From a virus (Duplodnaviria; Heunggongvirae; Uroviricota; Caudoviricetes): DNA of 34,565 nucleotides. Where the stretch lies: the IMG/VR virus record IMGVR_UViG_2896595138_000002, positions 1 to 34,565 of that record. The stretch is one strand, 5' to 3'. This document shows, piece by piece, positions 4,600 to 33,250 of the stretch; position 1 is the first letter of the stretch; every line of letters starts with the position of its first letter. The translations under genes were made by a program, and so were the position numbers. The notes beneath the pieces were generated by a model. The model had not been told where the DNA came from, ran no database searches, and worked only from the letters and a program-made list of their open reading frames with translations.

Positions 4600-6747
4600 T
4601 TACTGCGAAAGTTTGTTAATGGAAAGGAAGCCGCCAAAGTTGCCGACGTTATTGCGGAACTTACAACCGCTCAGGCATTTGCTGCATTTATCCTTCGTGA
4701 TATCGGACGTTGGCTGGTCATATTCATCCGCGACCGCCGGACCATGATAACCGCACTCATCGCCGCGATAGGTCCAGGTGCAGGTGTTGGCCAGCATGAT
4801 ACGTCCCGGAAAAACAGCGCCGTCCGTTTCCGTCGGCGTGGACAGTACAAAAGAGGCACTCACCGCGCTCAGTTCGCTGCACTGCTCAATGCGCCAGCGG
4901 CTGATCACCTCCTGCTCCGGATCGGCGTCACTGTTTCCGTTGACGAAGTTCACCGCATCCAGAAAACGGGCGTAAACCTTACGCCGGACCACCGTTCCGC
5001 CGACCAGACTCTGCAGATCTTCCGCCATCCCGGTGACCATACCGTACAGGTTAGAAACCGTCAGCGTGGGGCGCGTACTGGTGCCCTTGTCGCCAAGTGC
5101 AGCCAGCTGGTGTTTGTACTCCAGCGTCTCATCTTTATGCGCCAGCAGGGATTTCTCCTGTGCAGACAGCTGGCGACGTTGCGCCGCCTCCTCCAGTACC
5201 GCGAACTGACTCTCCGCCTTCCACAAATCCCGGCGCTGCTGGCTGATTTTCTCATTTGCTCCGGCATGCTTCTCCAGCGTCCGGAGTTCAGCCTGAAGCG
5301 TCAGCAGGGCAGCATGAGCACTGTCTTCCTGACGATCGCCCGCAGACACCTTCACGTCGAACTGTTTCGGCTTTTTCAGCGTCGCTTCATAATCCTTTTT
5401 CGCCGCCGCCATCAGCGTGTTGTAATCTGCCTGCAGAATTTTCCCGTCCTTCAGTGCCTTGTTCAGTTCTTCCTGACGGGCGGTATATTTCTCCAGCGGC
5501 GTCTGCAGGCGTTCATAAGCCTTCTGCGCCTCTTCGGTATATTTCAGCCGTGATGCCTCAGACTCGGCCCAGTCCTTTGCTGCCATCTCTCTGGCCTTTT
5601 CAAGATCGGCCTGCAACGTGCCGGCTGAAAGCCCAAGTTGCGCATTCGCTCTGTCCTCCCATGCTCCCCGGAGATTGGCAAGAAATGCGGATGTTTTACC
5701 GCGCCGGTGGCTCCGGCTCTGATACCACTGCCATTTTTTGTCCGCCTCATCAAAAGCCTTTTCTGCTTTCTCCAGCATTTCCCGGGCAGTGTCCGGGCGA
5801 CCAATATCCAGCACCGAATCCCACATGGATTTGAATGCCCGCGCTGTCCTGTCTGCCCAGGTCTCCAGCGTGCCCATGTTCTCTTTCAGGCGGCGGGTCA
5901 GGTCATCAAACCCTTTCGTTGCGGCCTCGTTCGCCGCCTGCAATGCCCCGGCTTCATCTCCGGAACGCTGCAACTGAGCAACATACGCAATCTGCTCCGC
6001 CGTCACGTTATGGAACTGACGTGCCATCGCTGTCAGTCCCGACGTCGGGTCTGTGGTCAGCTTCCCGAAGGCTTCAGCGACCTTGTCCACCTCCACGCCG
6101 GATGCAGAGGAGAAACGCGCCACACTCTGGCTGATCGCCTCAAACTGCTCACCACCACGCACACCTGCATTCACCAGCGCCGTCAGTGACTCGCTGGTCT
6201 GGTTAAACGTCAGCCCTGCCGCCTGCCCGGCTCTGGACAGGACCAGCATACGATCTGCCGTCAGTCCTGCCTGATTACCGGAAAGGACCAGCGTTTTATT
6301 GAAACTGGACAGGGTTGAGTCCCCCTGATACCAGGCATACGCCAGCGCACCGATCGCCACCGCCAGCGAGGTGGCCCCGACCATCGGCAGGGTGATCGCA
6401 CCGGCAAGCCCCCTGAACATGGGGATCATCCCGCCGAAGGAGTCCTTAACCTGACCACCCTGTTGCAGCAGGATCAGCCACGGACTTTGCCCGCCTGCAA
6501 GCTGCGTGGCCACGTCGGTGAACTGCGCAGGCAGCATACGCATGGCGGCTTTATACTGCCCGACGGAAATCCCCGCTTTCTGTGCAGCCAGCGCCTGTCG
6601 GCTCAGCGACTGTTCAACGACTGCCGCTGTTTTTTTCGCATCACTTTCCGTACCGGAAAAATGACGCCTGACTCTGGCCATCTGCTCGTCAAATCTGGCC
6701 GCATCCAGACTCAAATCAACGACCAGATCGCCTACCGGTTCAGCCAT
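4600..6747 (-). pseudogene. In-frame fusion of lambda H-like tape measure (N-terminal ~560 aa) to the C-terminal ~160 aa of lambda L-like tail protein
   Basis: 715-aa ORF: MAEPVGDLVVDLSLDAARFDEQMARVRRHF... (gpH) switches at ...LAALGDK|GTSTRPTLTVSNLYGMVTGMAED... to gpL C-terminus ending FGGFLSINKLSQ. H C-terminus, all of M and L N-terminus are absent. Confidence 0.8.
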
Positions 6748-12856: not shown

Positions 12857-14121
12857 TCTTCTCCTCCTCTGTTGATTGTCGCAGTCCGGATTCAAATGCC
12901 GCAGCCGCCCAGGCGGGCGGTTTAAGACCGGCTGCACGGCGCTCCATCGTTTCACGGACCTGCTGGGCAAAAATTTCCTGATAGTCGTCACCGCGTTTTG
13001 CGCACTCTTTCTCGTAGGTACTCAGTCCGGCTTCTATCAGCATCACCGCTTCCTGTACTTCTTTCAGACCATCGATGGCCATACGACCGGAGCCTATCCA
13101 GTCACAGTTCCCCCAGGCGCTGCGGGCTTCCTGAAAGCTGAAACGCGCTTTTGAAGGTAACGTCACCACGCGGCGAACGATGGCCTCTTCCAGCCAGCAC
13201 AGAAACATCTGGCTCGCCTGACGGGATGCGACGAATTTTCGCCGCCCCATAAAGTACGCCCACGACTCGTTCGCACTGGCCCGTGCCGTGGAGTAGCTCA
13301 TCTGGGCGTAATTCCGGGAAAGCTGCTCATACGAGACACCCAGCCCGGCAGCGATATACCGCAACAGTGACTGCTCAAACACGGAGTAGCCGTTATCCGT
13401 GTCCTGAGCCGTCTGCAGGTTCAGTGAGTCCCCCGGCATCAGGTGCGGCACTTTTGCGCCTCCCAGACGGACCGGTGCTGCGGCGTAATACGCGGCAATT
13501 TCACCAATCCAGCCGGTCAGCTTGTCCCGCTGCTCCTTACTGTTCGCGCCCAGAATAAAATCCATCGCTGACTGCGTATCCAGCTCACTCTCAATGGTGG
13601 CGACATACATCGCCTTCACAATGGCGCTCTGCAGCTGCGTGTTCTGCAGTGTGTCGAGCATCTTCATCTGCTCCATCACGCTGTAAAACACATTTGCACC
13701 GCGGGTCTGCCCGTCCTCCACGGGTTCAAAAACGTGAATGAACGAGGCGCGCCCGCCGGGTAACTCACGGGGTATCCATGTCCATTTCTGCGGCATCCAG
13801 CCAGGATAGCCGTCCTCGCTGACGTAATATCCCAACGCCGCACCGCTGTCATTAATCTGCACACCGGCACGGCAGTTCCGGCTGTCGCCGGTATTGTTCG
13901 GGTTGCTGATGCGCTTCGGGCTGACCATCCGGAACTGTGTCCGGAACAGTCGCGAGGGACTGGTATCCCAGGTGGCCTGAACGAACAGTTCACCGTTAAA
14001 GGCGTGCATGGCCACACCTTCCCGAATCATCATGGTAAACGTGCGTTTCCGCTCAACGTCAATGCAGCAGCAGTCATCCTCGGCAAACTCTTTCCATGCC
14101 GCTTCAACCTCGCGGGAAAAA
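12837..14121 (-). pseudogene. B: Lambda B-like portal protein, 5'-truncated (about 105 N-terminal codons missing) by IS insertion
   Basis: ORF 12837..14165: gpB homology runs from ...FSREVEAAWKEFAEDDCCCIDVERKRTFTMMIREGVAMHAFNGELF... to ...EEEKSDSRAA; the first ~14 codons of the ORF are IS600-derived. Confidence 0.85.
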
Positions 14122-14941
14122 TTTCGCACGTATAAACATCTTTGATGCCAGCGAGGTACAACCATCCCTCCTGTGTGGCAACATACGTCAGGTCCGCCAC
14201 CCAGACCTGATTTGGTGCTGTAGGAGCGAACGTCTGGTTCAGCAGATTTGGCGCAACTGGCAGATTGTGGTTCGGGTTCGTAGTCGCTCTGAACTTGCGT
14301 TTCTGCTTACAGCGTAGCCTTAGCTCCTTACGAAGACGTGCCAGTCGGTCACGACCAACGATGATGCCATTCTCTGCCAGCTCCGTCTGGAGCCGCCGGG
14401 TTCCATATGTTTCGCGAGTGCGGATATGTGCCACCTTAATCTCCAGTTTTAGCCGCTCATCACTTTGTTTTCTGTCTGAGGGTTCATGCTGTACCCAGTT
14501 GTAATAACCGCTCCTGGATACACCAAATACCTGACACATCGCTTCAATGGGAAATTGTTGTCGCCATTGTTCGATTAACGCGTATTTTTCAGCGACTCCT
14601 GTGCAAAATACGCTGTTGCTTTTTTTAATATATCTCGCTCAAGGCGAGCTTCATTTAACGCCTTACGCAGTTGCAGAATTTCAGATTCCAGTTCAGCCAC
14701 CGTGCGGGAACCAGGAGTACCGAGCCCTTTTCTGGCGGCGGTAACCCATTGTCCTAAAGTGCCTTCAGGAAGGGATAATCGGGAAGCGCCTTCACTGATC
14801 GAAAGTTGATTTTCAAGAACCGTTCTGACAGCTTCGGCTTTGAACTCTTTAGAGTAACGTTGGGTTTTTCTGCTCATTATTAGCTCCTTCTGATGCCATT
14901 CTATTTCAGGAAGGAGTGTCCGTTAAACTCAGGCTACCTCA
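14122..14941 (-). mobile_element. IS600 (IS3 family), partial copy 1: left end + orfA + about 140 codons of orfB
   Basis: Left-end sequence TGAGGTAGCCTGAGTTTAACGGACACTCC (RC at 14919..14941); orfA at 14575..14877; identity to the other copies stops at 14122 where portal sequence begins. Confidence 0.85.
14575..14877 (-). CDS. IS600 OrfA (helix-turn-helix transposase subunit)
   Basis: 100-aa ORF MSRKTQRYSKEFKAEAVRTVLENQLSISEGASRLSLPEG...KKATAYFAQESLKNTR; A7 run at plus 14620..14626. Confidence 0.9.
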   Translation of the reverse strand: MSRKTQRYSKEFKAEAVRTVLENQLSISEGASRLSLPEGTLGQWVTAARKGLGTPGSRTVAELESEILQLRKALNEARLERDILKKATAYFAQESLKNTR

Positions 14942-15872
14942 GACTTTTGCTGGCCCGAAGACCAAATCCGAAGCGCCCGTTCTTTTCATCACGAAAGTTT
15001 TGCTCTATCTGCATTCGCCGACTGTATAACTTGATGATTTCTCGCGCTCTGAAGTCATTTGTACTGCTGAAGATCAACCAGGCTTCTTTTGCTGATTTGC
15101 TCTGTTCTTTGTCTGTTTTGTTTAAACCACTCTGACCTTTCGAACGTTTCTTTTTTCGCCCTTTTGCCGATTTCTTATAGGTGTAAAAATGCCCCCGGAT
15201 GCTTTTTTTCCTTTCTTTAACCAGCCTTCCAGCCCCCATATATTCCGGTGTTTTACATTCAGGGCTATCCGACACTTTTAACCATCTTTCAGGCGCGTTA
15301 TCGAGGCAATACTGAACGTTATTTCTGATCCGACCAATAAAATCCCAGCCCAGAGAAGTAATATGGTGAAACCATGCGCTCTGAAATCCAGCATCCGTGA
15401 CAATAATAACCCTGGCATCGGGGGGCAGGGATTGAGCAAGGGAATCAAGGAAATCATGTTGTATCAATGGATTATTTTGTTTTTCAGAAGGAACAACCTT
15501 ACTCAATAACGGAATGGAACGCCCGTCACACAGAAGGCTGGCACGAAGAACATGATGCTCCTGGGAGGGATAGCCACTCCAGTCTACGGCTATTACACAT
15601 AAAGATAACTGCCGTGTCAGCATTGAAGTGATATTCCTGAAAATCATTGGAATATCGCGATGGAGCGCCTCATTACCCATGAGGCGATCAATACGTTTGA
15701 TCTTATTCTTAACTTGTGCATTACCCGGCAAAAAACGTCCGATACTGGTCAGCGTCAGAGATGCTCCGTTGATTAACGCCACTGTGGCATCCATCAGGGC
15801 ATTTTGTCGGTACTGATGAAATGGTGCTAAGGCATCCCGGAAGAAATTCTGACATACTTTATGAACAGGCAT
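14942..15872 (-). pseudogene. IS10-like DDE transposase, C-terminal ~80 aa missing
   Basis: Homology ends at the IS600 junction, about 14941. Confidence 0.7.
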
Positions 15873-15954
15873 AGCAGTGATCTCATTGAATTGTTGGCAC
15901 AAATCAGTAGATCACATAATGCTATGTCTGTCTCGTTTTCTGGGGATTCCTCAG
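14942..15954 (-). mobile_element. IS4-family (IS10-like) element fragment, 3'-truncated by IS600 copy 1
   Basis: Transposase ORF 14934..15902 with IS10-like motifs (IKRIDRL, VDWS, LRAS, DAGF, KGRKKKRS, IYSKRMQIEQNFRD); terminus CTGAGGAATCCCC (RC) at about 15942..15954. Confidence 0.7.
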
Positions 15955-15982: not shown

Positions 15983-18084
<2,102 letters not shown>

Positions 18085-18110
<26 letters not shown>

Positions 18111-19964: not shown

Positions 19965-20135
19965 CTAGATTAAATCAATCTTGATATCATAGCTTTCAAG
20001 ACCAGTCATTTTTTCCCGTGCAGTAAACTGGATACTGGTAACTTCTTTCCCGGTCTTTTTCTTAAGCTCAATGATTTTTTTTGTTATATATTCAGAAATA
20101 TCTGCTTCTGTTTTTGTTTTTAGCTCTTCAATGTT
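19965..20135 (-). CDS. gnsB: GnsA/GnsB-family small protein
   Basis: MNIEELKTKTEADISEYITKKIIELKKKTGKEVTSIQFTAREKMTGLESYDIKIDLI (57 aa from the internal Met of ORF 19965..20231). Confidence 0.75.
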   Translation of the reverse strand, partial: NIEELKTKTEADISEYITKKIIELKKKTGKEVTSIQFTAREKMTGLESYDIKIDLI

Positions 20136-20502: not shown

Positions 20503-20810
20503 TGCTGGTTCAGAGTTAAAAAAACTATTATTTTTTTCATATGTTACCGTAATATGTGAGTATCCATCGACTAGACACTAAGCAAAAAAGCTCCCGAAGG
20601 AGCCTTCATTTTCACTTTCTTAAATCTAACGACAGATGGCTAACATTTAAGTATTGTGAAATATTATCAAATGTAATCATCATTGATTTACAAAAGATAC
20701 ATTTTGCCCCGAAAGGATTTCTGTCAGAAACATCAAAAGATGTTGTTCTATACTGAGAACCATGGCAACACGGGCATCTAAAGTGAATATGGTTTGTAAT
20801 ATTTTCTACC

Positions 20811-21023
20811 TCAAAGTGCCACTACATGAACAGCTGCAGGGCCTTTAGGTCCGTTCTCAATACCAAATTCGACTTCCTGATTCTCAGTTAACGTTTTGAA
20901 ATCGTTGCTCTGAATAGCTGAGAAATGCACAAACACATCTTTGCTACCATCTTTCGGCGTGATGAAACCAAAACCTTTTTCAGGGTTAAACCATTTCACT
21001 AAACCAGTCATTTTGTTAGACAT
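20811..21023 (-). CDS. cspI: Cold-shock protein, CspA family
   Basis: 70-aa [70 protein letters not shown]; RNP1/RNP2 motifs. Confidence 0.9.
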
Positions 21024-21083
21024 TATTATTACCTTTTGAAGAAGTTACCCTTAAGATTTCAAGGATTTTGACTCATGGAAGAG

Positions 21084-22348
21084 TGAGGTAGCCTGAGTTT
21101 AACGGACACTCCTTCCTGAAATAGAATGGCATCAGAAGGAGCTAATAATGAGCAGAAAAACCCAACGTTACTCTAAAGAGTTCAAAGCCGAAGCTGTCAG
21201 AACGGTTCTTGAAAATCAACTTTCGATCAGTGAAGGCGCTTCCCGATTATCCCTTCCTGAAGGCACTTTAGGACAATGGGTTACCGCCGCCAGAAAAGGG
21301 CTCGGTACTCCTGGTTCCCGCACGGTGGCTGAACTGGAATCTGAAATTCTGCAACTGCGTAAGGCGTTAAATGAAGCTCGCTTTGAGCGAGATATATTAA
21401 AAAAAAGCAACAGCGTATTTTGCACAGGAGTCGCTGAAAAATACGCGTTAATCGAACAATGGCGACAACAATTTCCCATTGAAGCGATGTGTCAGGTATT
21501 TGGTGTATCCAGGAGCGGTTATTACAACCGGGTACAGCATGAACCCTCAGACAGAAAACAAAGTGATGAGCGGCTAAAACTGGAGATTAAGGTGGCACAT
21601 ATCCGCACTCGCGAAACATATGGAACCCGGCGGCTCCAGACGGAGCTGGCAGAGAATGGCATCATCGTTGGTCGTGACCGACTGGCACGTCTTCGTAAGG
21701 AGCTAAGGCTACGCTGTAAGCAGAAACGCAAGTTCAGAGCGACTACGAACCCGAACCACAATCTGCCAGTTGCGCCAAATCTGCTGAACCAGACGTTCGC
21801 TCCTACAGCACCAAATCAGGTCTGGGTGGCGGACCTGACGTATGTTGCCACACAGGAGGGATGGTTGTACCTCGCTGGCATCAAAGATGTTTATACGTGC
21901 GAAATTGTCGGCTACGCCATGGGAGCGCGCATGACAAAAGAGCTGACAGGTAAAGCCCTGTTTATGGCGCTCAGGAGCCAGCGCCCACCTGCCGGGCTAA
22001 TCCACCACCCTGATCGAGGTTCACAGTACTGCGCATACGATTACCGGGTCATACAGGAGCAGTTTGGTCTGAAAACATCAATGTCGCGTAAAGGTAACTG
22101 TTACGACAACGCTCCGATGGAAAGCTTCTGGGGAACGCTGAAAAATGAGAGCCTGAGCCACTATCGTTTTAATAACCGGGATGAAGCCATCTCAGTAATA
22201 CGGGAATACATTGAGATTTTCTACAATCGTCAGCGTCGTCACTCTCGTCTGGGGAATATCTCCCCGGCAGCCTTCAGGGAAAAATATCATCAGATGGCTG
22301 CTTAAAAAAAGAACAAATGGTAGTGTCCGCTATTGCCAGTACACCTCA
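21084..22348 (+). mobile_element. IS600 copy 2, complete, flanked by 3-bp direct repeat GAG
   Basis: Ends TGAGGTAGCCTGAG... and ...GCCAGTACACCTCA; GAG at 21081..21083 and 22349..22351; 1265 bp. Confidence 0.9.
21148..22305 (+). CDS. IS600 transposase as a single fused OrfAB reading frame (385 aa)
   Basis: A8 run at 21399..21406 (A7 in copies 1 and 3) joins orfA to orfB in one frame: ...DILKKSNSVFCTGVAEKYALIEQWRQQFPIEAMCQVFGVSR...; DDE domain present. Confidence 0.85.
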   Translation: MSRKTQRYSKEFKAEAVRTVLENQLSISEGASRLSLPEGTLGQWVTAARKGLGTPGSRTVAELESEILQLRKALNEARFERDILKKSNSVFCTGVAEKYALIEQWRQQFPIEAMCQVFGVSRSGYYNRVQHEPSDRKQSDERLKLEIKVAHIRTRETYGTRRLQTELAENGIIVGRDRLARLRKELRLRCKQKRKFRATTNPNHNLPVAPNLLNQTFAPTAPNQVWVADLTYVATQEGWLYLAGIKDVYTCEIVGYAMGARMTKELTGKALFMALRSQRPPAGLIHHPDRGSQYCAYDYRVIQEQFGLKTSMSRKGNCYDNAPMESFWGTLKNESLSHYRFNNRDEAISVIREYIEIFYNRQRRHSRLGNISPAAFREKYHQMAA

Positions 22349-22407
22349 GAGTCCTTTTTATTTAAATTTCACATTCAGCGCTAAAAATAATCCGATTTAA
22401 TATTAAT

Positions 22408-23434
<1,027 letters not shown>

Positions 23435-23539
23435 GGATATTTATCAGGATTTATCGGTTTCTGAACCCTAGATATGTTTATCTGTCCCGGCCTGTTGAAT
23501 CAGGCTGGGAAAAGGTAAAGACAATCAAGAGGATTATTT

Positions 23540-23812
23540 ATGGACAATAACACCATTTCTCTACAGGAGTTGCTCGACTGCATTTCCAGGCTTCGGGATG
23601 ATGTAAATGCCCTCACTGTTGCATTTTCATCTCTGGCCTTATCAATTCCCAGAGAACAAATGCAACCAACACTGGCATCGCTCCTGCTTGAATCACGCAA
23701 CCCCAAATGGTCCCAGGAACAACAAAATTCTTTCAAGTGGCTGGCGGCATTACTGGAAGAAAAATATGCTGGTAAAATTACCATTTCGGTGGAGTCTTCA
23801 GAGAATCAGTAA
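23540..23812 (+). CDS. Hypothetical 90-aa protein encoded antisense to the lysis cassette
   Basis: Strong SD (AAGAGG, 7 nt before ATG); predicted helical, non-membrane protein MDNNTISLQELLDCISRLRDDVNALTVAF... Confidence 0.5.
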   Translation: MDNNTISLQELLDCISRLRDDVNALTVAFSSLALSIPREQMQPTLASLLLESRNPKWSQEQQNSFKWLAALLEEKYAGKITISVESSENQ

Positions 23813-24122
23813 TTCTTCCTGGTAGCTTTCCTTTGTAGGTTATCCACACATTCTGCGCCTCTAAAATTATGGGGCGCTTTTCCGGCGACTGCTCATCCCC
23901 TTCACATAACCCGGCAGCAACATCCAGGAAGACCTGTCTGATGCTCATTCTGGCTGCTGCCTCATAAAACTCCAGCGCGGCACCTTCAACACGGTCCAGC
24001 GAGATGTCCAAGTCAAAAATTTCACCGTCAAAGCGTTTTTTGTCCCGTAACGCTAAAGTTACCGTAACTTTATTCTCAAAATTGCGGATCCCTTTCACAA
24101 TCAGTTCATAGTTTTGAGTCAT
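23778..24122 (-). CDS. Hypothetical 114-aa protein between holin and endolysin
   Basis: ATG 5 nt after the holin stop with GGGGAGAG SD; MTQNYELIVKGIRNFENKVTVTLALRDKKRFDGEIFDLDISLDRVEG... Confidence 0.6.
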   Translation of the reverse strand: MTQNYELIVKGIRNFENKVTVTLALRDKKRFDGEIFDLDISLDRVEGAALEFYEAAARMSIRQVFLDVAAGLCEGDEQSPEKRPIILEAQNVWITYKGKLPGRITDSLKTPPKW

Positions 24123-24126
24123 TGAA

Positions 24127-24342
24127 TTACTCTCCCCGTGCAGCCTTACGACGGTCCTCTCTGATTTTGAAATACAGGTTAGTCAGATATGTCAGCAGCC
24201 CAAACAGCCGACTCCCCAGCACGCCTATTGCCGCCCACTGAGACGGGGAAACCCTGTCCAGCAACTGCAGGAACCAGTAGCCCGTTCCCACCGCTGACGT
24301 GGTGTATGACACACCTGTTGTGATTTTTTCCATCTGGTCCAT
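24127..24342 (-). CDS. Class II holin (phage-21 S-type pinholin) with dual-start motif
   Basis: [44 protein letters not shown]...[21 protein letters not shown]; Met1 and Met4 dual starts. Confidence 0.85.
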
Positions 24343-25097: not shown

Positions 25098-25433
25098 ATG
25101 AAGTGGATTGTGATTGATACAGTTATCCAGCCATCATGCGGAATATCTTTTTCAGTCATATGGAGTAAAATAAAATTAATAATCTGGTATCAATCGGATG
25201 CTTTCTTACCTCCTGAAAGTATATTTACACTGACTCACACAGGCATCATGCTCAATAACAAAGTGCTACCTGTAACCATTTACAACGTAGTACCATTCAA
25301 TAAAACATTCTGGAATTTAATCAAAAACAGCCAGGAATGCCCTACAAATACAGATAACGTATTGAATGAATGCTTTAATAACCGTTGCACTCTGCAAATA
25401 TGTCCTTATGGACTAAAACAACAAAGTCCATAA
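25098..25433 (+). CDS. Hypothetical Cys-rich 111-aa protein in an AT-rich island
   Basis: AGGA SD 6 nt before ATG; six Cys including [26 protein letters not shown]; no recognisable family. Confidence 0.35.
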
Positions 25434-25451: not shown

Positions 25452-25489
25452 ACAAAATCAATATAAACAGCCCCTCCGGAGAGGGCTGG
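25452..25489 (-). terminator. Rho-independent terminator-like hairpin (minus strand)
   Basis: Near-palindrome CAGCCCCTCCGGAGAGGGCTGG followed on the minus strand by TTTATATTGATTTTGT. Confidence 0.45.
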
Positions 25490-26087
25490 AGAGTGGCGCT
25501 ATGTGCCATTGCATGGTGCCGGGTGCCTCCCGGTGAATTCAGTACCAGCACCTGAATCCGCGATTATCCCATATACCTACTCGCTGATTTCCCCTCCGCA
25601 CAGGGGGATTCACCATGCCAGTTTCTTTTAACAAACTCCCGCAAACCAGACAACAGTCAACCGCCTGAATTGTGAAGTATTTAAAAATTTCTCCCGCTAA
25701 CTGATACCCGGCTAACAGTCTGGCGTTTTCTTTTTCAGCAACGGGAAAGCAACAACCACCACACCCGCCACCAGCACACCGTCAGCCAGCACTGACATTA
25801 TCCGGCTGCTGCAATGCCATTCACAAAAACAGTAAGCAATCACTTTTTACCGTAACAGGTGATAATCCAGATATGTATCCTGAGGTGTACTGGCAATAGC
25901 GGACACTACCATTTGTTCTTTTTTTAAGCAGCCATCTGATGATATTTTTCCCTGAAGGCTGCCGGGGAGATATTCCCCAGACGAGAGTGACGACGCTGAC
26001 GATTGTAGAAAATCTCAATGTATTCCCGTATTACTGAGATGGCTTCATCCCGGTTATTAAAACGATAGTGGCTCAGGCTCTCATTTT

Positions 26088-26741
26088 TCAGCGTTCCCAG
26101 AAGCTTTCCATCGGAGCGTTGTCGTAACAGTTACCTTTACGCGACATTGATGTTTTCAGACCAAACTGCTCCTGTATGACCCGGTAATCGTATGCGCAGT
26201 ACTGTGAACCTCGATCAGAGTGGTGGATTAGCCCGGCAGGTGGGCGCTGGCTCCTGAGCGCCATAAACAGGGCTTTACCTGTCAGCTCTTTTGTCATGCG
26301 CTCTCCCATGGCGTAGCCGACAATTTCGCACGTATAAACATCTTTGATGCCAGCGAGGTACAACCATCCCTCCTGTGTGGCAACATACGTCAGGTCCGCC
26401 ACCCAGACCTGATTTGGTGCTGTAGGAGCGAACGTCTGGTTCAGCAGATTTGGCGCAACTGGCAGATTGTGGTTCGGGTTCGTAGTCGCTCTGAACTTGC
26501 GTTTCTGCTTACAGCGTAGCCTTAGCTCCTTACGAAGACGTGCCAGTCGGTCACGACCAACGATGATGCCATTCTCTGCCAGCTCCGTCTGGAGCCGCCG
26601 GGTTCCATATGTTTCGCGAGTGCGGATATGTGCCACCTTAATCTCCAGTTTTAGCCGCTCATCACTTTGTTTTCTGTCTGAGGGTTCATGCTGTACCCAG
26701 TTGTAATAACCGCTCCTGGATACACCAAATACCTGACACAT
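26088..26741 (-). CDS. IS600 OrfB (DDE integrase domain), 3' end frameshifted
   Basis: ORF ends ...ESFWER*, other copies read ...ESFWGTLKNESLSHYRF...; C-run 26089..26091 is 3 long. Confidence 0.8.
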   Translation of the reverse strand: MCQVFGVSRSGYYNWVQHEPSDRKQSDERLKLEIKVAHIRTRETYGTRRLQTELAENGIIVGRDRLARLRKELRLRCKQKRKFRATTNPNHNLPVAPNLLNQTFAPTAPNQVWVADLTYVATQEGWLYLAGIKDVYTCEIVGYAMGERMTKELTGKALFMALRSQRPPAGLIHHSDRGSQYCAYDYRVIQEQFGLKTSMSRKGNCYDNAPMESFWER

Positions 26742-26776
26742 CGCTTCAATGGGAAATTGTTGTCGCCATTGTTCGA

Positions 26777-27079
26777 TTAACGCGTATTTTTCAGCGACTC
26801 CTGTGCAAAATACGCTGTTGCTTTTTTTAATATATCTCGCTCAAGGCGAGCTTCATTTAACGCCTTACGCAGTTGCAGAATTTCAGATTCCAGTTCAGCC
26901 ACCGTGCGGGAACCAGGAGTACCGAGCCCTTTTCTGGCGGCGGTAACCCATTGTCCTAAAGTGCCTTCAGGAAGGGATAATCGGGAAGCGCCTTCACTGA
27001 TCGAAAGTTGATTTTCAGGAACCGTTCTGACAGCTTCGGCTTTGAACTCTTTAGAGTAACGTTGGGTTTTTCTGCTCAT
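26777..27079 (-). CDS. IS600 OrfA
   Basis: 100-aa ORF identical in pattern to copy 1 except L20P (RTVPENQ). Confidence 0.9.
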   Translation of the reverse strand: MSRKTQRYSKEFKAEAVRTVPENQLSISEGASRLSLPEGTLGQWVTAARKGLGTPGSRTVAELESEILQLRKALNEARLERDILKKATAYFAQESLKNTR

Positions 27080-27258
27080 TATTAGCTCCTTCTGATGCCA
27101 TTCTATTTCAGGAAGGAGTGTCCGTTAAACTCAGGCTACCTCAACAGGATGGACTTAGCAATGGCTGCTCCTGGCACAAAGCGGACAGTGATCACCGTTC
27201 TTACGACTACTTTCTGACTTCCTTCGTGACTTGCCCTAAGCATGTTGTAGTGCGATAC

Positions 27259-30296: not shown

Positions 30297-31118
30297 ATGA
30301 AACTGGAAGATTTACCGAAATACTACTCCCCAAAATCCCCTGGCCTGACCGATGCATCGGCCTCAACGTCAAAAGATGCGCTGAGTATCACTGATGTGAT
30401 GGCCGCGCAGGGCATGACACAGAATCGGGCTGAGATGGGTTTTTCTGCGTTCCTGGGGAAAATGGGCATCAGTATGAATGACAGGGCGCGGGCAACAGAA
30501 TTACTGGCAGATTATGCACTCAGTCGGTGCGATCGTGTGGCGGCGTTGAGAAAACTTCCGGCAGAAATAAAACCGGTAGTGATGCGCATTATGGCTTCGT
30601 ACGCTTTTGAGGATTATGCCCGCAGCGCAGCGAGTAAAAAGCAGTGCCCTTGTTGCTATGGGGAAAAATTTATTGAAAGCATAGTTTTTACAAACAAGGT
30701 CCAGTATCCGGATGGTAAGCCGCCGGTATGGGCAAAGTGTACGAAAGGTGTGTATCCGTCTTACTGGGAAGAATGGAAAAAAGTCAGGGAGGTGGTAAAA
30801 GTTGCCTGTCCGGAGTGTGGCGGAAAGGGTGAGGTTTCCACCGCCTGTAAGGATTGCCGTGGGCGTGGTGTCGCCATTCATCGTGAAGAGTCGGTAAAAC
30901 GTGGTATGCCTGTTATCAGAGACTGCCAGCGTTGTGGTGGTCGTGGCTATGAAAGACTACCATCAACGGAGGCATTTAATGCTATATGCGAGGTGACAAA
31001 CCAGATAACACGCGCGTCATGGGAAAAAACAGTTAAGAAATTTTATGATGCGCTGGTGACCCGGTTTGATATTGAAGAAGCATGGGCTGAGCGGCAGTTA
31101 AAAAAGGTAACTAGGTAA
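30297..31118 (+). CDS. Late-gene antiterminator Q-like protein with DnaJ-type CxxCxGxG zinc-finger repeats
   Basis: 273-aa ORF just upstream of a promoter/terminator pair and tRNAs; motifs CPECGGKG, CKDCRGRG, CQRCGGRG; placement after rusA typical of lambdoid Q. Confidence 0.6.
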   Translation: MKLEDLPKYYSPKSPGLTDASASTSKDALSITDVMAAQGMTQNRAEMGFSAFLGKMGISMNDRARATELLADYALSRCDRVAALRKLPAEIKPVVMRIMASYAFEDYARSAASKKQCPCCYGEKFIESIVFTNKVQYPDGKPPVWAKCTKGVYPSYWEEWKKVREVVKVACPECGGKGEVSTACKDCRGRGVAIHREESVKRGMPVIRDCQRCGGRGYERLPSTEAFNAICEVTNQITRASWEKTVKKFYDALVTRFDIEEAWAERQLKKVTR

Positions 31119-31269: not shown

Positions 31270-31345
31270 GGCCCTTTAGCTCAGTGGTGAGAGCGAGCGA
31301 CTCATAATCGCCAGGTCGCTGGTTCAAATCCAGCAAGGGCCACCA
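31270..31345 (+). tRNA. ileZ: tRNA with CAU anticodon (Ile2/ileZ-like, or Met)
   Basis: 76 nt GGCCCTTTAGCTCAGTGGTGAGAGCGAGCGACTCATAATCGCCAGGTCGCTGGTTCAAATCCAGCAAGGGCCACCA; cloverleaf folds with a 7-bp acceptor stem and encoded CCA. Confidence 0.85.
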
Positions 31346-31443: not shown

Positions 31444-31520
31444 GCGTTGTTAGCTCAGCCGGACAGAGCAATTGCCTTCTAAGCAATCGGTCACTGGTTC
31501 GAATCCAGTACAGCGCGCCA
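31444..31520 (+). tRNA. argN: tRNA-Arg (anticodon UCU), argN/argU-like
   Basis: 77 nt GCGTTGTTAGCTCAGCCGGACAGAGCAATTGCCTTCTAAGCAATCGGTCACTGGTTCGAATCCAGTACAGCGCGCCA; anticodon loop CTTCTAA. Confidence 0.85.
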
Positions 31521-31985: not shown

Positions 31986-33250
31986 TGAGGTAGCCTGAGT
32001 TTAACGGACACTCCTTCCTGAAATAGAATGGCATCAGAAGGAGCTAATAATGAGCAGAAAAACCCAACGTTACTCTAAAGAGTTCAAAGCCGAAGCTGTC
32101 AGAACGGTTCCTGAAAATCAACTTTCGATCAGTGAAGGCGCTTCCCGATTATCCCTTCCTGAAGGCACTTTAGGACAATGGGTTACCGCCGCCAGAAAAG
32201 GGCTCGGTACTCCTGGTTCCCGCACGGTGGCTGAACTGGAATCTGAAATTCTGCAACTGCGTAAGGCGTTAAATGAAGCTCGCTTTGAGCGAGATATATT
32301 AAAAAAAAGCAACAGCGTATTTTGCACAGGAGTCGCTGAAAAATACGCGTTAATCGAACAATGGCGACAACAATTTCCCATTGAAGCGATGTGTCAGGTA
32401 TTTGGTGTATCCAGGAGCGGTTATTACAACCGGGTACAGCATGAACCCTCAGACAGAAAACAAAGTGATGAGCGGCTAAAACTGGAGATTAAGGTGGCAC
32501 ATATCCGCACTCGCGAAACATATGGAACCCGGCGGCTCCAGACGGAGCTGGCAGAGAATGGCATCATCGTTGGTCGTGACCGACTGGCACGTCTTCGTAA
32601 GGAGCTAAGGCTACGCTGTAAGCAGAAACGCAAGTTCAGAGCGACTACGAACCCGAACCACAATCTGCCAGTTGCGCCAAATCTGCTGAACCAGACGTTC
32701 GCTCCTACAGCACCAAATCAGGTCTGGGTGGCGGACCTGACGTATGTTGCCACACAGGAGGGATGGTTGTACCTCGCTGGCATCAAAGATGTTTATACGT
32801 GCGAAATTGTCGGCTACGCCATGGGAGAGCGCATGACAAAAGAGCTGACAGGTAAAGCCCTGTTTATGGCGCTCAGGAGCCAGCGCCCACCTGCCGGGCT
32901 AATCCACCACTCTGATCGAGGTTCACAGTACTGCGCATACGATTACCGGGTCATACAGGAGCAGTTTGGTCTGAAAACATTAATGTCGCGTAAAGGTAAC
33001 TGTTACGACAACGCTCCGATGGAAAGCTTCTGGGGAACGCTGAAAAATGAGAGCCTGAGCCACTATCGTTTTAATAACCGGGATGAAGCCATCTCAGTAA
33101 TACGGGAATACATTGAGATTTTCTACAATCGTCAGCGTCGTCACTCTCGTCTGGGGAATATCTCCCCGGCAGCCTTCAGGGAAAAATATCATCAGATGGC
33201 TGCTTAAAAAAAGAACAAATGGTAGTGTCCGCTATTGCCAGTACACCTCA
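31986..33250 (+). mobile_element. IS600 copy 4, complete, no target-site duplication
   Basis: Both termini present; flanks AGA / TCA differ; 1265 bp. Confidence 0.9.
32050..33207 (+). CDS. IS600 fused OrfAB transposase (385 aa)
   Basis: A8 run at 32301..32308, as in copy 2. Confidence 0.85.
   Translation: MSRKTQRYSKEFKAEAVRTVPENQLSISEGASRLSLPEGTLGQWVTAARKGLGTPGSRTVAELESEILQLRKALNEARFERDILKKSNSVFCTGVAEKYALIEQWRQQFPIEAMCQVFGVSRSGYYNRVQHEPSDRKQSDERLKLEIKVAHIRTRETYGTRRLQTELAENGIIVGRDRLARLRKELRLRCKQKRKFRATTNPNHNLPVAPNLLNQTFAPTAPNQVWVADLTYVATQEGWLYLAGIKDVYTCEIVGYAMGERMTKELTGKALFMALRSQRPPAGLIHHSDRGSQYCAYDYRVIQEQFGLKTLMSRKGNCYDNAPMESFWGTLKNESLSHYRFNNRDEAISVIREYIEIFYNRQRRHSRLGNISPAAFREKYHQMAA

Follow-up and report, generated by a model that had tools for sequence, protein, structure and literature searches.

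An IS600 insertion and a separate 246-bp deletion upstream of the prophage cold-shock gene cspI

How did an insertion sequence come to stand directly in front of a cold-shock gene, and what has become of the promoter and the long 5' leader on which such a gene depends? The question is raised by a stretch of 34,565 nucleotides (referred to throughout as the window), part of NCBI assembly GCA_002950375.1, record CP026845.1, in which one end of an IS600 element faces the start codon of cspI at close range. IS600 belongs to the five insertion sequences that have expanded in every species of Shigella and also in EIEC lineages, and is a known driver of strain-to-strain variation and gene loss (PMC7373316); from the density of IS600 in the window, read together with that paper, we infer a source genome of Shigella/EIEC type. 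The initial annotation held that the element had inserted into the 5' leader of cspI, and that the insertion had probably removed or replaced the native promoter and leader. The comparisons given below point to a different course of events, with an older insertion farther upstream and a later deletion that did the damage.

The cspI locus and its IS600 copy

The features that bear on the question are given here one to a line, with positions in the window and strand.

20590-20603, minus strand: G+C-rich hairpin GCTCCTTCGGGAGC followed by TTTTTT (as read on the csp strand), 9 bp past the ynfQ stop
20612-20800, minus strand: ynfQ/ymcF-like gene for a "cold shock small protein", 62 aa, ATT start, intact, 10 bp 3' of cspI
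20811-21023, minus strand: cspI coding sequence, 70 aa, intact (from the ORF, PF00313 CSD and nucleotide identity)
21024-21047, minus strand: last 24 nt of the native cspI 5' UTR, TAACTTCTTCAAAAGGTAATAATA, with the Shine-Dalgarno AAGG at 21032-21035
21045-21052: deletion junction, with AAGGG (21052-21048) and TAA (21047-21045) as merged direct repeats
21048-21083, minus strand: 36 nt of native far-upstream intergenic DNA joined to the IS end, including the duplication copy at 21081-21083
21084-22348, plus strand: IS600 (IS3 family), 1265 bp, left end (IRL) toward cspI, transposase reading away
21148-22305, plus strand: OrfAB, a single 385-aa reading frame (Pfam HTH_Tnp_1, HTH_21, rve)
22352-22407, minus strand: remaining native rzpQ-cspI intergenic DNA beyond the IS, a 100% match to the IS-free E. 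coli locus L001
22408-22905, minus strand: rzpQ (DUF2514, Rz-like), closing the lysis cassette of the prophage; same strand as cspI and upstream of it

The cspI DNA of the window is 100% identical to the cspI coding sequence of E. coli NZ_CP018995 (WP_000066495.1), and the copy in a related genome, GCA_031665755.1 (here L004), is likewise a 100% nucleotide match. Together with the PF00313 domain and the rzpQ-cspI-ynfQ context, this identifies the gene as the cspI orthologue of the CspA family. On the csp strand, the order is holin, lysozyme, rzpQ, the IS600, cspI, ynfQ, ynfN and gnsB, which is that of E. coli Qin-type prophages; the K-12-type Qin locus has the same order rzpQ-cspI-ynfQ-ynfN, a cspI that is 100% identical, and flanks that are 99-100% identical.

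The small gene ynfQ is annotated at the same place in E. coli, and the corresponding gene call in L004, whose sequence here is that of the window, carries PF23641. It has an ATT start and was missed by the ORF listing; it is absent from the gene table of GCA_002950375.1 (loci L002 and L003) and present in that of L004. The hairpin at 20590-20603 is likely the intrinsic terminator of a cspI-ynfQ unit, and ynfQ probably shares the fate of cspI.

The element upstream of cspI, copy c2, is the second of four IS600 copies within the window, one of which is truncated. Its termini read TGAGGTAGCC...CACCTCA, with TG...CA ends, and over its full length it is 99.5-99.6% identical to 1264-bp elements annotated by PGAP as "IS3-like element IS600 family transposase". 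The triplet GAG is found on both sides (21081-21083 and 22349-22351). In the empty E. coli site it occurs once (as CTC when read on the csp strand), which makes the pair a genuine target-site duplication of 3 bp and not a chance match. The distance from the IS600 end to the cspI ATG is exactly 60 bp (21024-21083); the initial annotation had put it at about 60 bp, with a GAG duplication, and in both respects was correct. The span that it singled out, 20811-21090, takes in the cspI coding sequence and the spacer, and reaches 7 bp into the IS.

The A-run at 21399-21406 is A8 in c2, as against A7 in c1 and c3, and orfA and orfB are thus fused in one frame, with no frameshift needed. This is a variant of the layout usual in the family, in which orfA and orfB are joined by -1 frameshifting at the A-run to give a DDE (rve) transposase. 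Copy c4 (31986-33250, plus strand; ORF 32050-33207), like c2, has an A8 run and a fused 385-aa OrfAB, and the exact transposase proteins of c2 and c4 are each found in this assembly only. Sequencing error in the A8 runs is less likely, since ORFs of 385 aa are also present in the orthologous copies of L004. Fusion of this kind could make a copy hyperactive, or reliant on transcriptional slippage.

Empty-site comparison and the 246-bp deletion

With the two flanks of the IS joined and searched against 5,426 complete E. coli genomes, the locus was found in 2,166 of them, and every best match spans about 249 bp more than the query. BLAST against the IS-free E. coli locus L001, where the rzpQ-cspI spacer is 363 bp, locates the difference: the flank on the rzpQ side stops at a CTC that is present once; from that CTC the csp-side flank runs on directly for its first 39 nt, and its remainder picks up about 240 bp further along, with 246-247 bp nearer to cspI absent from the window. 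The continuation from the same CTC makes the IS600 a clean insertion with a 3-bp duplication, while the gap that follows it indicates a second lesion, a deletion starting 33-36 bp from the IS terminus. This fixes the insertion point at 306 bp before the cspI ATG, where it touches neither promoter nor leader. Comparison with IS-free homologous loci, the check that the initial annotation had itself proposed, thus bore out the end state that it described (promoter and leader missing) and not the cause, and brought the second lesion to light.

The spread of both events across Shigella was sampled through protein look-ups. That with the RzpQ protein led to L004, where this IS600 occupies the identical site and lies 246 bp farther from cspI. 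Aligned with the window, L004 differs by four substitutions within the IS and one in ynfN, and the window has just one gap, of 246 bp. Searching with the ynfN allele of the window brought up one contig, L008, a short-read contig from Logan ERR5888622, which begins in the left end of IS600 and has the same CTC duplication and the full 306-bp interval to cspI. In L004 and L008 alike, 306 bp separate the IS from the ATG and about 127 bp separate it from the -35 sequence, with promoter and leader complete, so that IS600 did not land in the 5' leader as the initial annotation had it. The arrangement which that annotation had regarded as incompatible with its reading, a native promoter and full leader between the IS and the start codon, is what these two relatives carry; the window does not have it.

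Two further short-read contigs, L006 and L007, break within the right end of IS600 at the same site. L007 and L008, both from ERR5888622, show no base substitutions against the window and differ from it, apart from the deletion, by one base in an A-run. A homopolymer at 20075-20082, in the gnsB region, has 8 bases in the window and in L004 and 7 in L008, and is, the deletion aside, the sole difference between the window and ERR5888622 in 1 kb. The junction between IS and flank had 0 exact matches among GTDB species representatives. The IS600 insertion is shared between strains and is older than the deletion, which is private to the window's assembly; in the relatives that have the IS only, it should at most block read-through from the lysis genes.

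The endpoints of the deletion lie in short direct repeats, AAGGG-TAA and AAGGGC-TAA, which agree in 8 of 9 nt and have been merged to AAGGGTAA at 21052-21045. The junction reads CTTAAGGGTAACTTCTTC, and the deleted DNA corresponds to L004 5859-6104, running TAAGATAAAAGG...CCCAAGGGC. Judged by its junction alone, the deletion looks like the product of replication slippage or of microhomology-type illegitimate recombination between short repeats; it has in common with slippage deletions at short direct repeats its endpoints in the repeats, the one merged copy left behind and the clean loss, and nothing about the window's case is unusual. Two other origins were considered and rejected. IS-adjacent, transposase-mediated deletions begin at the IS terminus; here both copies of the duplication are kept, with 33 further native bases beside the IS end, and the 36 nt at 21048-21083 match the IS-free L001, as well as L004 and L008, at 100%. 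Recombination with the leader of another csp paralogue is countered by the perfect match of both flanks to the cspI locus, which leaves a simple loss.

The deletion is known from a single assembly. A 94-nt query across its junction, for which the deletion allele, if present, would rank first, was run against 5,426 E. coli genomes (2,083 of them with the sequence), and the allele was not among the matches listed; the best E. coli matches listed all consist of two pieces spanning 341 nt. Nor was any exact match to the junction found in GTDB representatives or in JGI metagenomes.

The native promoter and leader

The cspI 5' UTR is given as 145 nt long, with a cold box, in a statement of PMC6719143 that cites Wang 1999, and it has been described as an RNA thermometer, in which at 37 C a long stem-loop formed by the UTR and the start of the coding sequence sequesters the ribosome-binding site and AUG (PMC13271884). 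In L004, where the ATG is at 6129, the UTR length from that secondary citation would put the transcription start site near 5985; the Rfam cspA model has its position 1 at L004 5972, 157 nt upstream of the ATG and in the same neighbourhood. The native interval from IS to ATG contains a sole TTGACA/TATAAT-like pair, TTGCTA (L004 5950-5955), 17 nt, and TGc-GTTAAT (5973-5978). It is preceded by an AT-rich, UP-like stretch (78% A+T), its end is 7 nt short of the start site that follows from the UTR length, and the deleted block contains it. We take TTGCTA-17-TGcGTTAAT to resemble a promoter of the cspA type with an extended -10, and from one UTR length, secondarily cited, and the match to consensus it is predicted to be the cspI promoter.

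With the deletion went the AT-rich region, the predicted promoter (-35, -10 and extended -10) and the start site, together with about 120 of the 144-145 or so leader bases, among them the segment that pairs with the Shine-Dalgarno sequence and start codon. When the native leader is folded together with 72 nt of coding sequence, it gives one long stem-loop (-51.1 kcal/mol, z = -2.85), in which the Shine-Dalgarno/AUG region is paired with UTR bases around ACCUCUU; in the remnant found in the window, by contrast, the Shine-Dalgarno and AUG are unpaired and the structure is like that of shuffled sequence (z = -0.35), which supports the loss of the thermosensor. The initial annotation was therefore right that promoter and leader are gone, the 24 nt at 21024-21047 being what is left of the latter, and mistaken as to the agent, which was the separate 246-bp deletion and not IS600. 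Set against the K-12-type Qin locus, the window is without 246 bp (with the promoter and some 120 of the 144 or so leader bases) and has, in addition, an IS600 that went in far upstream.

A cspA thermoregulator (RF01766) has a long 5' UTR with a cold box (145-160 nt), which folds with the Shine-Dalgarno and AUG into alternative structures according to temperature; of this UTR, 24 nt are left here. The Rfam model still matches the window at 20780-21131 (minus strand), with 105 bits as against a gathering score of 78 and 111.6 bits in L004; the 5' third of the match is aligned to the left end of IS600, and the score comes from the coding region. As evidence of an intact thermoregulator the match has been rejected, the leader being deleted and the UTR part aligned to IS600; the false "intact" call arises because the model covers the whole coding sequence.

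Expression after the deletion and the setting of the locus

The reading that we favor, and hold with good confidence, is that an older IS600 insertion was followed by a separate 246-bp deletion which removed the cspI promoter and leader, with probable loss of expression. Both events struck the DNA between rzpQ and cspI in a defective lambdoid prophage of Qin-like type, each independently of the other. In the first, IS600 transposed in 306 bp upstream of the ATG, with its 3-bp duplication, sparing promoter and leader, and this state persists in related strains. In the second, confined to this strain, 246 bp were lost between AAGGG-TAA and AAGGGC-TAA, leaving 60 bp between IS and ATG. This would leave cspI and ynfQ without a promoter and RNA thermosensor of their own, and with cold induction gone; the two genes would be silent or transcribed by weak read-through only, and in any transcript of that kind the ribosome-binding site would be unstructured and independent of temperature. 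As far as sequence allows a prediction, cspI is most likely no longer cold-inducible and largely silent, and the same is probably true of ynfQ. The intact coding sequences of both fit a very recent deletion, and fit equally well the continued use of the genes.

An alternative that we regard as unlikely is that cspI has been rewired, and is transcribed from or through IS600, by antisense or outward transcription that crosses its left end, or by read-through from the lysis cassette, giving constitutive CspI at 37 C. The residual leader does retain its Shine-Dalgarno sequence, unpaired in the fold, and neither cspI nor ynfQ is damaged in its coding sequence. The situation also has something in common with the hybrid or outward promoters made by IS1, IS2 and IS5 upstream of silent operons, in that an IS end stands 60 bp from a promoterless, intact gene; it differs from them in that, on the csp strand, no match to a -35 or -10 lies across the IS end or next to it, and in that it is the left end that faces the gene. 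In IS3-family elements (IS911, IS2 and IS3), junction promoters have their outward -35 in the right end, not the left, and in the literature no paper was found on an outward promoter of IS600. All that a consensus scan detected was the inward transposase promoter of the left end, TTAACG-17-TAGAAT, at 21099-21127 on the opposite strand. The standard promoter scan and a first relaxed scan both missed the promoter of native cspI, since A is lacking at position 2 of the -10 box in csp-type promoters (GTTAAT); a third scan recovered it. With the scan this loose, five 8-of-12 promoter-like matches appear on the antisense strand of the IS, which would favor rewiring, but all are at chance level and the csp strand shows no promoter-like site in the 415 nt or so before the ATG. 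Consensus scans being insensitive, this is moderate evidence, and not proof, that a promoter is absent from the window. No sign is evident that IS600 supplies a substitute, and the suggestion in the initial annotation that it replaces the native promoter found nothing to match it on the csp strand within that distance.

Read-through fares no better. There are three terminator-like hairpins inside the IS on the csp strand, and the Q antiterminator gene (30297-31118, plus strand) lies on the strand opposite to the lysis cassette, beyond another IS600, which makes it unlikely that terminator-resistant late transcription reaches cspI. The more specific proposal that the deletion turned cspI and ynfQ from cold-only to temperature-independent expression, by way of low-level transcription from or through IS600 onto an open ribosome-binding site freed of its thermosensor, seems to us improbable. 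Were it true, the locus would be a natural "thermometer knockout" produced by an IS and a deletion, with CspI made constitutively at 37 C by a host-restricted pathogen.

It is also quite improbable that the 246-bp deletion is an artefact of assembly or consensus, and that the real strain has the cspI promoter and leader intact, as its relatives do. The allele does occur in one assembly only, and the closest sample available, ERR5888622, shares the window's private ynfN allele and is without the deletion. Against this, the breakpoints fall in a direct repeat of 8 of 9 nt, as is typical of real slippage deletions, the flanks are without base substitutions as compared with the relatives, and a clean loss of 246 bp from unique, non-repetitive DNA would be unusual for a long-read assembly error. 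Scarcely credible, finally, is removal or replacement of promoter and leader by the IS600 insertion itself, whether through insertion in the leader or an IS-adjacent deletion: it would account for an IS end just 60 bp from the ATG and for the missing promoter and leader, but not for an insertion point 306 bp upstream and outside both, for the identical insertion in L004 and L008 with everything intact (if those two assemblies are right), or for the 36 nt of native DNA, duplication included, still attached to the IS end.

Several features elsewhere in the prophage were recorded along the way. IS600 copies c3 (25881-27143, minus strand) and c4 (31986-33250, plus strand) are without target-site duplications, and Q, together with two tRNA genes (31270-31342 and 31444-31517, plus strand), is on the strand opposite to the lysis cassette (22408-24342, minus strand), which suggests that the late region of the prophage was rearranged by IS600-IS600 recombination or by inversion. 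When the flanks of c3 and c4 were matched crosswise, a simple exchange did not fit, implying a more complex history of rearrangement. The truncated copy, c1 (14120-14941, minus strand), has only the first 822 bp from the left end and adjoins an ORF for a DDE_Tnp_1-type transposase (14934-15902) in the head/packaging region. The terminase large subunit (GpA) is split into overlapping ORFs at 16186-16878 and 16845-18110 (minus strand; 230 and 421 aa), likely a frameshift pseudogene, which fits a defective prophage. Upstream of the holin gene, a match to the STnc100 sRNA family (117 bits, 25459-25647, minus strand) adjoins a pmrD-like ORF (25098-25433, plus strand).

The window resembles the IS600 expansion of Shigella and EIEC (PMC7373316) in the IS family, the 3-bp duplication, the several copies in a 34.5 kb decayed prophage, and the site shared between strains. 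It differs from the IS-linked degradation of those genomes in that the IS beside cspI interrupts no gene or promoter, the damage having come from a nearby deletion independent of it. None of this is novel in kind: the locus of cspI and its leader have been well described, and microhomology deletions are routine. The allele combining IS600 with the 246-bp deletion was not found in any other record searched, and its interest is local. Under the two-step reading of insertion and later deletion, the lesion at cspI is ordinary Shigella-type regulatory decay in an IS-laden prophage. It carries a general caution, in that the closeness of an IS to a gene does not prove that the IS caused the damage; here it was the empty site and the IS-only relatives that exposed the deletion. 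Automated annotation would report an intact cspI at this locus, and Rfam a cspA thermoregulator, so that tables of gene content would overstate the cold-shock repertoire of this strain. The IS-free E. coli locus, the relatives with the IS only, and the window with both IS and deletion make up a natural allelic series for the contribution of the leader to cspI.
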